NCBI GenBank assembly: GCA_964016885.1
Contig: OZ024747.1
Span: forward strand, 49,662,001 to 49,726,000
Source: Eledone cirrhosa
Taxonomy: Eukaryota
Direction: 5' to 3'
Length of the DNA: 64,000 nt
Shown here one piece after another: positions 12,935-21,460 of this stretch. The position numbers and the translations under genes are program-made. The notes below the pieces were generated by a model. The model saw only the letters and a program-made list of their open reading frames with translations, ran no database searches and had not been told where the DNA came from. Numbering within the stretch: the stretch's first letter is position 1; each line of letters begins with the position of its first letter.

Positions 12935-13300
12935 AGCTGACTTGGGAGGCTCCCATACAGCTCTGAGTTTTTTATCCTCAGTGAATACTGATTAATGTTC
13001 AGAGCCATCCTCAGCATTCTCGTGTAGCACCCATCCACCATCTGAGTGAGTTTCTTGGTCAGTGTCCAAGTCTCAGACCCATACAGCAGCAATGAAGAGG
13101 CGGATTTTCAGGTCTTTACTGAGGTTGCTCACCGATATCCAGAGTTGACACATTCGAAGAGGAAGACCAAGGTTAATGTATGTTGATGCCCTGAGGACAG
13201 ACACTGGTCTGTTGGAGACGCGGGACATGGCAGCGATAATTAGGGACAGAGACCGCTGGAGAGAACTCGTCCATGGATCTCGGGAATTTTACCCGCCCTA
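12935..13300. mobile_element. RTE LINE 3' end with inverted 5' segment
   Basis: 12935-13130 encodes LLYGSETWTLT..DGCYTRMLR on minus; 13125-13300 encodes RGRPRL..RDRWRELVHGSREFYPP* on plus. Confidence 0.85.
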
Positions 13301-13362
13301 GATATATATATATATATATAAACACACACACATGCATATATATATATATATAAACACACACA

Positions 13363-14725
13363 GCTTGTTGTGGGCGATGTCCACTTCTGATGGTGAGTAG
13401 AGCACGGATGAGGATCTTGGTGAAGACCTTGGTTAGGATGGAGAGAAGTGTGATGTCCGGTGGTTGCTGCAGATGAGTTTGTTGTTGCTTTCCTGTTTCC
13501 AGAAGGGGAGAATAATGCCTCGGGTCCAGTCATTTGGGAACTGCTCTGACAGCCATACATGGTTGATGATATGGGTGAGTCACTGGATCATGTTATCTCC
13601 ACGGTGATAGTGCAGATTCCAGGGGCTTTGTGGTTTTTGCATTTCTTCAAGGCGGTTCTGACTTGATCGTGGGTGACACAATTGAGTCTGCAGGAGCTGT
13701 TGGCTGCAACCGTGCCTGTGGTGGTTAGACAGGGATCAATTGGGACGGGTTGGTGATGCCGAATGAGGGTGAAGTGCTCCTTCCAGTGTTCGAAGCAGGT
13801 GGTTTTGATGGTGATGATGTTGCTATTGGTAACCTTCACCAGGGCTGCTCTGATCGAGGGACCAGCACGGGCTCTGTAAAGTGTGTTGAATACGTGGCTG
13901 AAGTTGTTGTTCCTTGCCACTGTCTCCAGGAGCTTAGTTTCTTCCGCCCAAAACTTTTCCCGGTTATCTGTTATGGCCTTGTTGCGTATCCAGTTGAGCC
14001 ACTGCACAGGTGAGCCTTGCCACAACAGTTAAGTATCTCCAGCATTTGCAGTGAAATCCAGGGCCGTTTGGGAAGAGGTCTTTATTTTAGTTATATATAT
14101 TTTCAGGTCTTTACGAAGGTCCGACTTCCACACCGATCTCAAGCTGTGGCACGCCGCCCAGGCTTTGCTCTTCCTCTCAACCACATCATCTTCCTATTCC
14201 CAATCTTTGCTCCCAAATACAGGAAGTCCTCAACCAATTCTAGCGGTTTCTCGCCTACATTGGTGATCTCCTCTGGCATCTCAAAATCCGCCTCTTCATT
14301 GCTGTAGTGGAGTCTGTGCTGCTGTACGGGTCTGAGACTTGAACACTGACCAAGAAACTCACTCAGATGATGGATGGGTGCTACACGAGAATGCTGAGGA
14401 TGGCTCTGAACATTAATCAGTATACACTGAGGATGAAAAACTCAGAGCTGTATGGGAGCCTCCCAAAAGTCAGCTCAAAAATGACACAGAGGAGACTGAG
14501 GTTAGCTGGACATGCTCACCAACATTCAGAGTTGACATTGCACTCAGTGCTCCTGTGGGAGCCCCTACATGGACACACTGGAAGAGGAAGACCAAGGTTA
14601 ACGTATGTTGATGCCCTAAGGACAGACACTGGTCTGTTGGAGACACAGGACATGGCAGTGATAATGAGGGACAGAGACCGCTGGAGAGAACTCGTCCATG
14701 GATCTCGGGAATTTTACCCGCCCTA
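13363..14725. mobile_element. RTE LINE, 5'-truncated with inverted 5' part
   Basis: Minus 13363-14020: pre-RT/RT N-terminal region (EHWKEHF, KNHKAPG). Plus 14020-14725: C-terminus to EFYPP*. Confidence 0.8.
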
Positions 14726-14768
<43 letters not shown>

Positions 14769-15189
14769 CTATAACAAATACAAGCATATATTCGTATGAG
14801 AAAGTATACGTACCTTCACAAAACATACAGGTAAGATATTCTTACCTATGCAGATGAGTAATGGTATAAACATAAAATATACTTAACTACCACATCAAGA
14901 TGTAAATTATCCGCGTATTGTTCGTACTATCCATTAGGGTATAATGTGGGGCTGTAATACAGGAAAGTTTTATGCAATTTGTGTTTACAAGCCGAAATTG
15001 CCTCAGATTTTTTGTTTAAGATGTGGTCATTGGCGTAGAGTATTTCCAGGGCTTCAGTGGCGCAAAGATCACATGGTCTTTTATTTATGTTATACAATTT
15101 AGCCATAGCTAGGATCTCCCAGTGTAACCTATATTGGGTGTGGTTGTGTTTTAGACTCCAGATATAAGCTAATATTTACTTCTGCGTTC

Positions 15190-15265
15190 ACAGATTGATT
15201 TTTTTAGTTTCAGAAGATCCCGTTAAGGGTGAAAGCAGCGATTCTTTGCTTAAACTTTAATCTGT
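15190..15265 (+). ncRNA. Type I hammerhead ribozyme-like motif (CAGAAGA core variant)
   Basis: Stem I AGTTT/AAACT extended by ACAGATTGA/TTAATCTGT; core CAGAAGA...GAAA; stem II CCC/GGG; stem III AGCA/TGCT. Inverted copy at 16268-16336. Confidence 0.6.
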
Positions 15266-15269
15266 TATA

Positions 15270-15309
<40 letters not shown>

Positions 15310-16245
15310 CTAGCTGGCCCGGCTAGGTATACCAGCATTTTATTTTTTCAGGAATCCCCCCTCCACTCCAGTGCAAAGATACCGCATGCCCTCTCAAGTC
15401 TACGAGGTTGGGGTGGGGGACTTGCTGGGGGTTAACGTGCTCTGATGTTGGGTTTGAATAGTTTTTAGGATTCCCCAGTTCAGCAGCCAGTACGTTAAAG
15501 AAAATTGATAGTTACAACAATAAATGCTGAACAGAGAATTCATTTTTTAACAAACAATAATTTGTACAACATTAATGGAAAATATTTAAATTACATTGTT
15601 AGAGCCTCAGAGTATACAATATTTTTTGTTCGGCCCTCCGGAGCAAAGATGAAGAGATTGTTTGGCGAGCTCACCCTAGAGCATCCTACATACAATTGAC
15701 CATGGGAGAAGCACTGATCTCATAGATCGTTTCACAGAGAAGCTCTGTAGACGTTGACCTATGGACTCCTGTCAGGAGCAGGTAAGCTGTAGTGACTTAG
15801 AGGCCTACCACCAATCTCCAAGACACTGTTTTCAAGACAAATGAGCGCCTCATTGAAAACGACATTGTATGTTACGTTCGGATTGTGTCTGCGTGTGCGG
15901 TGGAAGATGTCCTCAGCTTGACTTTTACGGTGGTTGTTCGACAGTGTGAGAGGGTCGGTGAGATCGCAGTTGTGCAGCATAATAGCAAAAAGTTTTCGCA
16001 GGTGAGAAGGGACTTTAGCAGTTGCTGCTCTTACAGGGTGAGGTGCCAATGGCTATCATCGTGTAACATACCATGCATCTGGCAAGCCAAACGGTAAGTG
16101 GAACATTGATGGACATTGATGGTTCTCAGATCTTGGAAAGACTGTGGTCCTCTAACCTCGAACAGTAACAATGACAATAAACCGTCTGTGCTTTCGTGAA
16201 ATAAATAGGTTTTTGTTTTTGTGTATGCAAAAATATCTGTAGACG
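15310..16245 (-). mobile_element. Internally deleted Helitron
   Basis: Minus-strand CFSHGQLYVGCSRV..TKNIVYSEAL helicase end and RGPQSFQDLRT..LRKLFAIML region; 3' GC hairpin followed by CTAG|T at 15310. Confidence 0.9.
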
Positions 16246-16454
16246 AATATATATATATATTAAAATAACAGATTAAAGTTTAAGCAAAGGCTTTCACTCT
16301 TAACGGGATCTTCTGAAACTAAAAAAATCAATCTGTGAACGCAGAAGTAAATATTTCGCAAAACGTTATCTAATGCAGACAGCCAGACACACAGAAACAT
16401 ATTATAAGGGCGCTACGTTATAGATATGTATCTATCTAAAAAAAGAGGGGAATG

Positions 16455-16510
16455 TTGTGCGACGTCATAAGAAAAAGCAAGGAATGTCGTATAACCGGAA
16501 GTGTTGACAT
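16455..16510. promoter_or_regulatory. Candidate promoter (CRE-like plus ETS site)
   Basis: CGACGTCA at 16460-16467 and perfect ETS ACCGGAAGTG at 16494-16503 in unique sequence. Confidence 0.4.
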
Positions 16511-16697
16511 TTGAAATTTTAAAGAAGTGAATATTTAAATAATGTCTTTAATCTTTTAACAAAATTCAGTAGACAAAAATAACCTCACTTTTTTTACTTG
16601 GAAAAAGTTACATCTATGGTGCAAATTTGGTGCTGTTTGGTCCAGCCATTTGGCGAAAAGTTTGTTACATACATACGGCCGTCAGCTTTATATTATA

Positions 16698-16728
<31 letters not shown>

Positions 16729-16815
16729 GTGTATATATATGTATATATATATATATATATACCTATATATATATTTATTAAAATGTATATATATGTATAT
16801 GTATATGTATATATA

Positions 16816-16982
16816 TAGTATTTCCCGGATCGAAGACGCTACTTTTTTCCCAAAATAAGTCTCAAAAATCTACCATGCATCCTGGAGGCTGAAGGTTGTT
16901 GATTATCTTTTTTCAAATATTTGGTTGTCAAAATTAATGGTGCGTCCTCAAGGATGAAGTGTCTTTGGCGCCAGGAAATATG

Positions 16983-16983
<1 letters not shown>
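16816..16983. mobile_element. pogo/Tigger-type MITE
   Basis: Imperfect TIRs AGTATTTCCCGGATCGAAGACGC / GTGTCTTTGGCGCCAGGAAATATGG in TA repeats. Confidence 0.65.
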
Positions 16984-17028
<45 letters not shown>

Positions 17029-17439
17029 GCATATATCATCATCATCATTAACACATCCACTTTCCTGCTAGTGAGAGTTAGACAGGTCTTCACAGACAGT
17101 CGGTACTTAAGTGGTGCTGCTGACCTCTCTGATGGGCTGAGTTGCCTGCATCTCACTTACATACTGTCCTGCACTCTAACAAGTGCACTTTATTGTGCTA
17201 CCAGCACCAGAAAGATGCCTTGTGAGTGAAATTTGATAGATGAAACTGTAGAAACCCATTGTGTGTGTGTGTGTGTATATATATATCAAATTAAAAAACG
17301 GAGTTAAAGATTTACGTTAATCCCCTATAATTTAATGAGCTCAAGGAATTGTGTATTTTTCTCTATATACTGGATGCTATTTCTAGTGGTCTTTTGGTCC
17401 ATTCACGCCACCATGGACTATATAGTGCGTGTGTTTTCT

Positions 17440-17985
<546 letters not shown>

Positions 17986-18295
17986 TATATATATAAATGT
18001 AATCTGTTTTTTTCGAATATTAATAATAATATTCAATTCGTTTGCAATTATGCAAACAAACCTCATTTTTAAAGCCATGTCAGTAGAATGAGCCCCCCCA
18101 TTCTTGCTCTTGTATTGGTATGTAAACAGAACTGCAGATACTAATATTCTGGGTAATACCCTTCAGCAGTACAGTTCACTGTTCACCTGCCAACTGTCAG
18201 AGCTAGTGAAAATATATGATATTTTCTAAAATACAGTGAGTGATCGGCCTGATTTGCATATTAGCATATTTATATAAATATATCTTTATATATAC

Positions 18296-18361
<66 letters not shown>

Positions 18362-18638
18362 GTGAGGTTTTTTTTACAAAATGAAAAATAACCGAGGTGT
18401 CCTACACGAGTGAAAGTATAAGGAAAAAAGATGAAATCGAAAATGCAACTGGAGTCTTTTTTTTAAAAAATATATATATATTTGGTTCCTTTACCGGTTT
18501 CGCAGTTCTTCTGCTTTTCAAAAGTAGAATTGAGATGGAGGGTCTGTGGTTTTTATATAAATATAAAATATATATATATATATACATAAATATATATAAA
18601 GTACAGAACAATCAAAACTAATGTTTAATACATTTCAT

Positions 18639-18699: not shown

Positions 18700-21460
18700 A
18701 CATAATTAATTCCTATTCAATAAAACTAGTTAAGAACATTAGATGTAGAAAACATTTTAATAGAAACAACACCTTCTTAAATAACCTCAATTCTACTATT
18801 AAAGATTTAATAGAAATAAGAAAATTCTAGTACATGCTGATAAAACTAATAATATATATAGGCTAGATTACGATACATATAGAAAATTTATAGATAAAGA
18901 GCTGCATAAGAGCTATAAGAAAACACTATTAGAAACCTAGACAATATAAATATTGAAGCCATAGTATAGTATGTAAATTAGGACTTCAGAGATATACACA
19001 ACCTTACACCCCTAACCCCCCAAGATTCTCTCTGAAGGACCATAAGGAAGACTAATTTGCCCTTCCTCTATAAGACTAATTTGCCCTTCCAAATCTGACA
19101 TTGGAATTATTAGCAACAAAATATTAGAATCATCCCCCAATTTAGGCAAAAACTATCTTAATCTATGGGGAAATACTGGTGAAGTTATAGAATGGTTCAA
19201 TAATATTAATGAGAATAAAAAAAAAAAAATTATCCAATTTGATATTAATTCGTACTACACCTCTATGTCTCCTATCCTATTAAACAAATCATTAATAATG
19301 GCTATGAATAATAGTGAACTTACTAAATCCCTAATTGATGTCACTCTTGTGGCCCGTAAAACTATAATTGTATTTGAAGATCAATTATGGACCCGCAAAG
19401 ATACACCTAACAACTTTGACATAACTATGGGATCTAGTGACTCAGTGCAGGTTACAGATTTGATGGGTCTATATCTCTTAAATGAAATTCATAAGAATTT
19501 GCCCTACCTCAATGGTGGTTTATACCACGATGATGCACTACTACTTATTGATTATAAAAAATTTAATATAGAAAGAACTAGAAAACAATTGCATAAACTA
19601 TTTAAAAACTTCAACTTAAGTATTACTTTAGATAGAAACACTAAAAACGTTAACTTCCTTGATGCTACCCTTTGCCGGTAGTCTAAAATATATACACCCT
19701 TTCATAAACCAAATGAAAAACTACTTTATGTAGATACCAACTCTAACCACCCTAAATCTATATTAAACTCGTTACTAAAGGAGTATCTAATAGAATAACC
19801 ACTCTATCTTATAATGAAACTATATTTAACAGAAATTCCCAATACTATAATGAAGCTTTAGCTCACTCAGGCCATAAAGATAAAATTAAATTTTTACCTA
19901 AAAAAATCATTTAGTTCTAACATTATTTCACACAATATGGCCATGAATAAAATTAAAAGTAATACAAGTACTGACCACTCTAACTCTAGTATGACGGGTA
20001 ATAACAAAGTTAACTTGCACCAAAATAAACATCCTAATAATAATAATAATAATAAAAATAGAAATATAAACAATACTACAACTAACCTTACAAAAAATAA
20101 TCACAAAAATAGAAGAACTAATACATTTTTCAATCCCCCTTTAAATTTAAATGTTTCTACCAACTTGCCTAAGGCTTTCTTCTCAATTTTAGAAAAAAAA
20201 TTTCCCAGTTGGCCATAGATACCATAATCTTATCAATAAAAATACTATTAAAATCTCTTACTCTACCACACCTAACATTGCGAACCATGTAGCTAGTAGT
20301 AATAAAAGGAAGATTAATAATTATTTCCAAATGATTAAATCACAACATGAGGGGAACTTGCATAACAACATAGTACCGGAGAATTCTAGTAGCAACAATA
20401 ATAATAGTAACAGCACTAATGAAATTAATAGCAATAGGAATAATAATCATCATTATCCTAATACTCTTCCTAACAACCATGCACCTACACACCCTATTAA
20501 CCAGCAAGTAAGCAACCCAAATAACTGTAATTATAGAACAAATAGAACTTGCCCCTTGAGAAAAAACTGCTTAATCAAAGACATTATTTACTCCTGTACA
20601 GTCAATACAAGTAACACTTCGAAAATATATATTGGTTCTACCTCGAACTGCTTTAAGACGAGATATAACTCACATCTTCACACTTTCAAAAATCATAATC
20701 TTAGCTAACTCCACTTCTTTATCTACCTACATACACTCTTTGAAAACTAGGAATAGACCATATATTCTACAATGAGAAGTTATAGATAAGGCCACTTCTT
20801 ATAAACCACTGAATAGATTCTGTAACCTCTGTATTTTAGAGTCTCGCACTATAGTCTATTCTAAGCTAAACCTTTTAAATAAGAAAATCAGAAATTTTTT
20901 CCACGTGTCAAAACTACCACCAACACTCTTTCCACAATTTCAAACCAAGCTGCTAATATATAACAATGTTAGATATATATTCCTCACCACCGTTAACACT
21001 TTACCTCTAGGTTTTATCAGCATAAAATACCCCCACGACATCACATTTTTGTATCTGTATCAGCTCATTCCTTCATTTATCTCCTATTTATCTCAGATCC
21101 TATACTCAATAATAACTATAGAGAATAAACATAAATGTACCACCACTTAATATAACTATATCTTCCTTACTAATATTTTATTCATTTAAGTAATATATAG
21201 GTAAGTAGTGGACAATTGGGACCTTTAAATATTATATAAAAAACAGATTATATATAAAATAAATATAAAAATAAATAACATTTTATAAGGATTTCCTTGT
21301 AATATAATATTATGTATATTAACACATAGAATTTAATTAATAGGATATATAAACAACTAACACCAGATTATATATTTTTCTGTTATGCATAAATAAATCT
21401 TCAATTACCTCCCCTTTCCCATTAGCTCCCTTTAGTGAACATCTCCAATCACTTCCTTGA
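18700..21460 (+). mobile_element. Penelope-like retroelement (RT plus C-terminal GIY-YIG), degraded
   Basis: RT motifs FDINSYYT, FDITMGSSDS..DLMGLYLL, GLYHDD, VNFLD; Cys-rich CNY..CPL..C then IIYSC..KIYIGSTSNCFKTRYNSH. Confidence 0.9.

Follow-up and report, generated by a model that had tools for sequence, protein, structure and literature searches.

The stretch of the Eledone cirrhosa genome analysed here (the window: 64,000 nucleotides, positions 49,662,001 to 49,726,000 of the forward strand of contig OZ024747.1, GenBank assembly GCA_964016885.1) contains two inverted copies of a repeat unit of about 100 bp with a hammerhead-like fold, referred to below as the left and right arms (Table 1). 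Both are probably copies of the end of a pseudo-long terminal repeat (pseudo-LTR) of a Penelope-like element (PLE), the right one lying inside a non-autonomous Helitron. The module that they represent would carry a three-way junction derived from a hammerhead ribozyme, with A instead of U at core position 4 (A4), which is likely to be under selection. We hold this overall reading with considerable confidence.

Table 1. Features in and around the two arms, in window coordinates
Feature	Position	Strand	Basis
Inverted, 5′-truncated fragment of the same PLE family	14728..15170	-	84% match to L016 822-415 (minus)
Left arm: 5′-truncated 3′ end of PLE pseudo-LTR, ending ...TTAATA before (TA)n	15171..15272	+	Family alignment; position in full-length copy L031
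Putative hammerhead-derived three-way junction, type I topology	15190..15265	+	Fold, Hydra-clade comparison, subfamily substitution pattern
(TA)n microsatellite: PLE insertion site and left (A side) Helitron flank	15273..15309	.	
Non-autonomous Helitron	15310..16699	-	40 scored copies; termini and flanks in 10 copies
Short (TA)n inside the Helitron (16240-16258) and the ~65 nt found after the unit in each sampled Helitron copy	16175..16258	-	
Right arm: PLE pseudo-LTR end captured inside the Helitron	16259..16368	-	Fixed internal position in 10/10 copies
Helitron-internal segment upstream of the captured unit; also part of a tandem-array monomer	16371..16442	-	

The unit of 101 nt is a high-copy repeat. 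Its 40 scored copies, out of 300 candidates, are 93-100% identical, and an exact 25-nt motif (CAGANGATCCCN5GGGTGAAAG) occurs 25,666 times in the 3.0-Gb genome. Homology among copies decays gradually upstream of the unit and drops sharply after it, which is the pattern of a 5′-truncated retroelement, and the left arm itself lacks the 12-13 nt and more that are present upstream in other copies. Copies terminate in ...TTAATA, after which comes (TA)n or else the 5′ untranslated region (UTR) of the next copy. A miniature inverted-repeat transposable element, or any other reading of the unit as a terminal inverted repeat, was ruled out by the gradual decay of upstream coverage and by the linkage of the unit to an open reading frame (ORF) for a reverse transcriptase (RT) and endonuclease.

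This ORF is nearly complete in one long copy (L031), where it matches residues 6-501 and 726-942 of the protein P0002 (E = 3e-92 and 3e-35) and shows 33-38% identity to proteins of 875-953 residues in a large protein collection. Pfam gave no match for proteins of the L031 type. The motifs RWR, NKT and YHDD are present, together with a CxCX5C linker (CNCRNQVDC) and a GIY-YIG-like motif, and the relatives P0002 and P0003 have RWK/RWR and DKT. PLEs of the Hydra clade are described as combining an RT and, C-terminally, a GIY-YIG domain with (TA)n insertion and hammerheads, and as having RWK, DKT instead of DKG, the CxCX5C linker and, within the endonuclease, CxxC and CxH motifs (PMC8557442). Upstream of the L031 ORF lies a partial unit and then a 5′ UTR, which places the unit at the end of a pseudo-LTR, and in three copies the unit is found ~925-1100 nt downstream of the end of the endonuclease. 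Insertion into (TA)n, pseudo-LTRs, and 5′-truncated and inverted copies, all traits of the Hydra clade, are likewise seen here. Judging from the sequence, the unit corresponds to the 3′ end of a Hydra-clade PLE pseudo-LTR.

The fold drawn for the left arm in the initial annotation is present in the sequence with all its parts, namely the three stems, the core, the GAA and U15251. In stem I, ACAGAUUGA-U7-AGUUU (15190-15210) pairs with AAACU-UUAAUCUGU (15252-15265), giving 5 + 9 pairs across the U7 bulge, and the open ends lie in this helix, as in type I hammerheads. The core CAGAAGA (15211-15217) has A at position 4. Stem II is UCCC/GGGU with the loop GUUAA, that is, three pairs and a U-U, and is followed by G12-A13-A14 at 15231-15233. 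Stem III, AGCAG/UUGCU, has five pairs and a 7-nt loop and includes the A15.1-U16.1 pair (A15234-U15250). The cleavage-site position, 17, is occupied by U15251, a non-G as required, and the predicted cut would fall between 15251 and 15252 if the fold is active. The three helices, G12-A13-A14, A15.1-U16.1 and the non-G17 are therefore those of a type I hammerhead. Two features depart from it: the A in what should be C3-U4-G5-A6-N7-G8-A9, and the U-U in place of the G10.1-C11.1 pair that closes helix II.

The initial annotation suspected that both departures could impair activity. It flagged the right positions, but the U-U is normal for the Hydra clade, and a U10.1-U11.1 mismatch opening stem II is documented in natural hammerheads (PMC3088659). 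Most Hydra-clade hammerheads follow the order ctgaNgaT-stem II-loop-stem II-Tgaa-stem III. They are located near the element's 3′ end, within ~10-20 nt of it in Hydra-1_oBim and Hydra-1_aJap (PMC8557442, File S2). The earlier suggestion of a Penelope-related, hammerhead-derived unit is borne out by this location of Hydra-clade hammerheads. As aligned here, the fold of the unit matches the hammerheads of the clade at every defining position save core position 4.

The A at position 4 is not peculiar to the window. CAGAAGA is the core in 36 of 40 aligned copies of the young subfamily, and also in one further young copy omitted from the alignment (its 5′ half is a junction). An older subfamily, whose copies are 83-91% alike (4467 candidates, 30 aligned), has CAGATGA in 17/30 copies and CAGAAGA in 6/30. 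None of the 70 aligned copies (40 young and 30 older) has T at position 4. A4 is the state of both the young subfamily, to which the 25,666 exact motif matches belong, and the older one, and on this distribution it is a feature of the lineage rather than a private mutation.

A sister subfamily with a canonical CTGANGA core was also considered. There are 861 genomic matches to such a core, and all 12 that were sampled are palindromic head-to-head junctions with CAGAAGA on the other strand. The 861 matches thus appear to be junction artefacts, with T on one strand where the other has A. Six CTGATGA matches belong to the older subfamily, and L066 alone among them (contig 1, ~219.99 Mb) has the normal stem I context. 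This copy has the full CTGATGA core and a differing distal stem I (ACUAGUACAGA / UCUGUACUAGU); its core could have arisen by back-mutation in a single decayed copy, or be the remnant of an ancestor with U4.

Comparison of the two subfamilies suggests that the fold is constrained. Their majority bases were compared over the 76 nt of the fold, which comprise 46 paired, 10 fixed unpaired and 20 free positions. All nine substitutions fall in the 20 free positions (two in the stem I bulge, one at N7, two in loop II and four in loop III), and two single-base insertions lie in the bulge and in the internal loop facing it. No change is found in the paired or fixed unpaired positions (P = 1.2e-6 under an even spread), and the fixed unpaired core is more conserved than the other unpaired positions (P = 0.012). 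Within the core, the subfamilies differ at N7 alone, its only free position. Since all nine substitutions lie outside the stems and the fixed core, a hammerhead-type fold is likely still under selection in an active PLE lineage. The initial annotation had called for a search for further copies; in the 70 that were aligned, the majority bases of the two subfamilies agree at every stem position.

Several points weigh against the reading of the unit as a selected, hammerhead-derived junction. To our knowledge, U4 is nearly invariant in natural hammerheads. Comprehensive mutagenesis found mutants of the CUGA turn to be low in activity (PMC9901934), so the A4 core may not cleave. The argument for selection rests on two subfamilies only, between which the stems are invariant and so show no compensatory pair changes. 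Just upstream, 19 nt are nearly as conserved as the fold itself (two changes), and the constraint could therefore act on a feature other than an RNA fold, such as DNA that is bound by a protein or serves as a promoter. Searches with the Rfam hammerhead models gave no match at E <= 10 in 13000-18500 of the window or in 5500-10000 of L031, and none reaches the gathering score. The fold is no more stable than shuffled sequences (z = -0.83), and the hammerhead pairing, at -13.0 kcal/mol against a minimum of -15.1, is not the predicted minimum-energy fold; the ensemble probability of proximal stem I is 0.04-0.07. In addition, the assignment to the Hydra clade is based on motifs and on 33-38% identity to unnamed proteins.

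Some of these points would suit a dead hammerhead, in which U4A has abolished all function and the apparent conservation reflects either how recently the subfamilies diverged or selection acting on DNA signals that overlap the fold. The low activity of U-turn mutants and the conserved upstream 19 nt agree with this. A PLE hammerhead was found to be protein-assisted and dispensable for insertion in vitro (PMC11167929). Hammerheads have been described as present in all canonical PLEs; the Naiads, PLEs of equal success, do well without canonical ones (PMC8557442). Against a dead hammerhead stands the placing of nine substitutions and two insertions within 76 nt, all of them outside the stems and the fixed core, as does the greater conservation of the fixed unpaired core bases. 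Rare core deviations also exist in nature, for example a viroid U4C variant that is functional in vivo (as cited in PMC3088659). On balance we consider a dead hammerhead unlikely.

The likeness to a hammerhead could also be accidental: the unit would then not descend from a ribozyme but be a conserved repeat terminus, for example one that binds the RT or serves as a promoter. The absence of an Rfam match, the unexceptional stability and the one wrong core base would all fit. A descriptor of three helices, with at most one core mismatch and an optional mismatch at 10.1/11.1, matched the window at 15211 alone and gave 0 matches in 150 simulated 64-kb sequences (Markov simulation with the dinucleotide frequencies of the window), a significance that is overstated because the descriptor was built post hoc from the motif. 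An accidental likeness would nevertheless have to place the motif exactly where the canonical hammerheads of the clade sit, in their unusual ...GAU-stem II-UGAA layout (PMC8557442), and to confine the core difference between subfamilies to N7. With the simulated windows also pointing the other way, we regard it as very improbable.

Canonical hammerheads do occur elsewhere in the genome. The RF00163 model gave 18 matches above the cut-off, from 74 candidates scored; they lie in other repeats with (TA)n flanks. A resemblance between the unit family and the canonical repeat family found in this way was examined and rejected, as the global alignment score (1.5, against -2.0 +/- 5.2 for shuffles) was not significant. 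Two other repeat families carry canonical hammerheads (L035-L052; L031 2737-2771 and L052 2799-2833), with the sequences CTGATGA-GTCC...GGAC-GAAAC and GTCACTGA[A/T]GAGGTCAC... In the first family, about half of the copies listed terminate in ...TTAAT before (TA)n, and the others continue into the next copy. No further hammerhead was found within 5500-10000 of L031, either by a relaxed descriptor or by Rfam at E <= 10.

The junction would act as an RNA element of the pseudo-LTR in tandem transcripts of the PLE, and could either undergo weak or protein-assisted self-cleavage after U15251 or be a structure that the RT of the element recognises near the start site of reverse transcription. A non-catalytic structural role has close to even prospects in our judgement. 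Site-specific cleavage in vivo is a possibility that we would not bet on, and the absence of any function seems improbable. More tentatively still, the A4 core may work as a natural variant of the hammerhead that selection has maintained in two subfamilies and over 25,000 copies of what is, among the PLE lineages seen in this genome, the most successful one; it would either still cut or serve PLE reverse transcription in a non-catalytic way. The copy carried by the Helitron would be free to decay and likely has no role.

On the role of hammerheads in PLEs, this locus adds a clade member present in tens of thousands of copies with a ‘forbidden’ core base. It amounts to a natural experiment. If A4 RNA cuts, the core consensus is looser than thought, and a natural U4A hammerhead would be on record for the first time, possibly assisted by the protein of the element itself. 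If it does not cut, the fold is conserved for another reason, which would point to a structural role.

The right arm has a different history. Non-autonomous Helitrons start with 5′-TC, end with 3′-CTAG near a subterminal hairpin, insert between A and T without a target-site duplication, lack a Rep/helicase ORF and can hold captured fragments. The 870 bp between the two arms belong to a separate repeat family, of which 40 scored copies, out of 1395 candidates, show 85-100% identity. Termini, flanks and internal layout were compared in ten sampled copies, including that of the window. The 3′ CTAG (15310-15313 in the window) stands beside a subterminal GC-rich hairpin, partly deleted in the window copy, and is followed by a host T (A on the plus strand of the window) in nine of the ten copies. 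At the 5′ end (~16699), where the family has TC, a host A and then TC are seen in six copies, and TA in the other four, the window copy among them. The 5′-TC, the 3′-CTRR, the subterminal 3′ hairpin and A/T insertion without target-site duplication are thus found in the sampled family, and the element lies between the A and the T of a (TA)n tract. Pfam searches of the Helitron and neighbouring ORFs gave nothing useful, with no domain in the Helitron ORFs.

Read rightward, all ten copies have the same layout: the 16175-16239 segment, a short (TA)n, the unit on the minus strand, the 16371-16442 segment and a common end at ~16699. Since the unit occupies the same internal place in 10/10 copies, the right arm is, on the evidence of this family, an old copy of the PLE end that became the cargo of the non-autonomous Helitron that captured it. 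The initial annotation, which had described arms around a Helitron, was right that a Helitron is present, but the Helitron contains the right arm. It was also correct in reporting an inverted unit of ~100 bp at 16259-16355 with a deletion in loop III, which is 7 nt long, but it made no mention of a G-to-A change in the right arm that disrupts a pair of stem II (GGGU to GAGU). The 7-nt deletion is also found in the copy L133, and so arose within the Helitron lineage.

The segment 16175-16239 also follows the unit in two tandem arrays, L009 and L017 (contig 2, ~354.26 Mb). Their monomers, of ~333-352 nt and ~750 nt, each contain a hammerhead-like unit flanked by (TA)n and have segments in common with the Helitron interior. 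The arrays look like retrozyme-type repeats or the source of the Helitron cargo.

The inverted repeat that first drew attention to the locus can be accounted for by this history. Arms 15171-15236 and 16290-16355 are 98% complementary, and 15244-15310 and 16223-16289 are 84% complementary. As all ten sampled Helitron copies carry the unit internally and the other nine have no left arm within 1.5 kb, the inverted arms are best read as a chance juxtaposition of two different mobile elements. The PLE and the Helitron would both have landed in the same (TA)n tract, giving the inverted orientation; one such tract suits both, because PLEs insert into (TA)n and Helitrons between A and T. The proposal that the arms are the terminal inverted repeats of a single non-coding fold-back mini-retroelement, into whose central (TA)n a Helitron later inserted, is scarcely credible: the arms are indeed 84-98% complementary and PLEs are known to make inverted-repeat insertions (PMC8557442), but the right arm, its (TA)n and its flanks are at a fixed position inside the Helitron family (10/10), the two arms do not recur together in other copies (the left is missing from 9/9), the tail-to-tail arrangement of the window is rare among close pairs of the PLE, the arm extents differ (the left is cut at 15171, the right runs on to at least 16442), and identity to other copies reaches 99% for the left arm, against a 92% identity of the right arm to the left. 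The locus is therefore a caution against taking an inverted repeat for a fold-back element, as a Helitron with a captured PLE end can mimic one.

The count of close pairs comes from the first 100 listed copies on contig 1, where adjacent pairs less than 5 kb apart comprise 13 head-to-head, three tandem and one tail-to-tail (1/17). Head-to-head junctions of the PLE recur at the same exact position. In all 12 sampled loci of the young subfamily (L053-L064, contig 1) they form the palindrome GGGATCTTC-T/A-GAAGATCCC centred on core position 4, and junctions in the older subfamily have the same centre (L065, L074/L099). The recurrence suggests that template switching or annealing occurs at a fixed site, the short palindrome TTCNGAA, as an insertion acquires its two arms.

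On its other side the left arm is joined head-to-head, at 15170/15171, to an inverted fragment of the same PLE family. The fragment holds part of the GIY-YIG endonuclease ORF, namely its C-terminal end (14927-15175), as well as the proximal 3′ UTR, and terminates in a (TA)n run at 14729-14760. It encodes the last ~64 residues of the endonuclease (39% identity to P0002 879-942, E = 3e-13), including the CxxC (CDLC) and CxH (CKH) motifs. Inverted, 5′-truncated arrangements are known for PLEs (PMC8557442), and by its layout the left arm together with this fragment is a usual two-armed PLE insertion.

Other putative mobile sequences are found in the window. ORFs at 13588-14726 resemble the C-terminal region of the reverse transcriptase of a long interspersed nuclear element and stop just before the (TA)n at 14729; they had no Pfam match at E <= 0.1. 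A second, more diverged Hydra-type PLE ORF lies at 18821-20690 (+), where residues 128-866 of P0002 are matched in pieces at 32-38% identity, and no hammerhead-like motif was seen in the 2 kb downstream of it. The window contains 200 N.

The elements at the locus are of known kinds: pseudo-LTR ends, set in (TA)n, of Hydra-clade PLEs that bear hammerheads, and a Helitron carrying captured cargo. What appears to be new is a lineage-wide A4 core in a fold that otherwise has every hammerhead feature, together with the very high copy number. The capture of a PLE end by a Helitron may be new as well, no literature search having been made for such cases.

The closest known systems are the Hydra-clade PLEs and their hammerheads (PMC8557442, PMC4209133). 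As in the elements described there, the layout is of type I at the extreme 3′ end, with ...GAU / UGAA around stem II. Also shared are the ORF with an RT and, C-terminally, a GIY-YIG domain, the CxCX5C linker, insertion into (TA)n, pseudo-LTRs, and tandem and inverted 5′-truncated copies. The differences lie in the details of the fold and in scale. Position 4 is A in every sampled copy of two subfamilies here, whereas all 34 Hydra-family rows of File S2 have ctga (PMC8557442). Stem III has five pairs and a 7-nt loop, compared with 3-4 pairs and a loop of 1-3 nt in Hydra-clade hammerheads, and stem I, unlike theirs, reaches 14 pairs by continuing across a U-rich bulge. The element measures ~3.2 kb, against under 3 kb for the Hydra clade, and here its copies number in the tens of thousands. 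With the natural core variants described in PMC3088659 the fold has U10.1-U11.1 in common, but no U4A variant was seen among those consulted, and a literature search for U4A hammerheads returned unrelated papers only.

Animal non-LTR retrozymes (bioRxiv 10.64898/2026.07.22.740005) offer a second comparison. The window locus is unlike those described in that it is not an array and has a non-canonical core, whereas the short-monomer arrays of L009 and L017 (~333-352 nt), with their PLE-derived unit, are like them. The Helitron, finally, differs from non-autonomous Helitrons in general in its cargo, which consists of a hammerhead-bearing PLE end, its (TA)n and its downstream flank.

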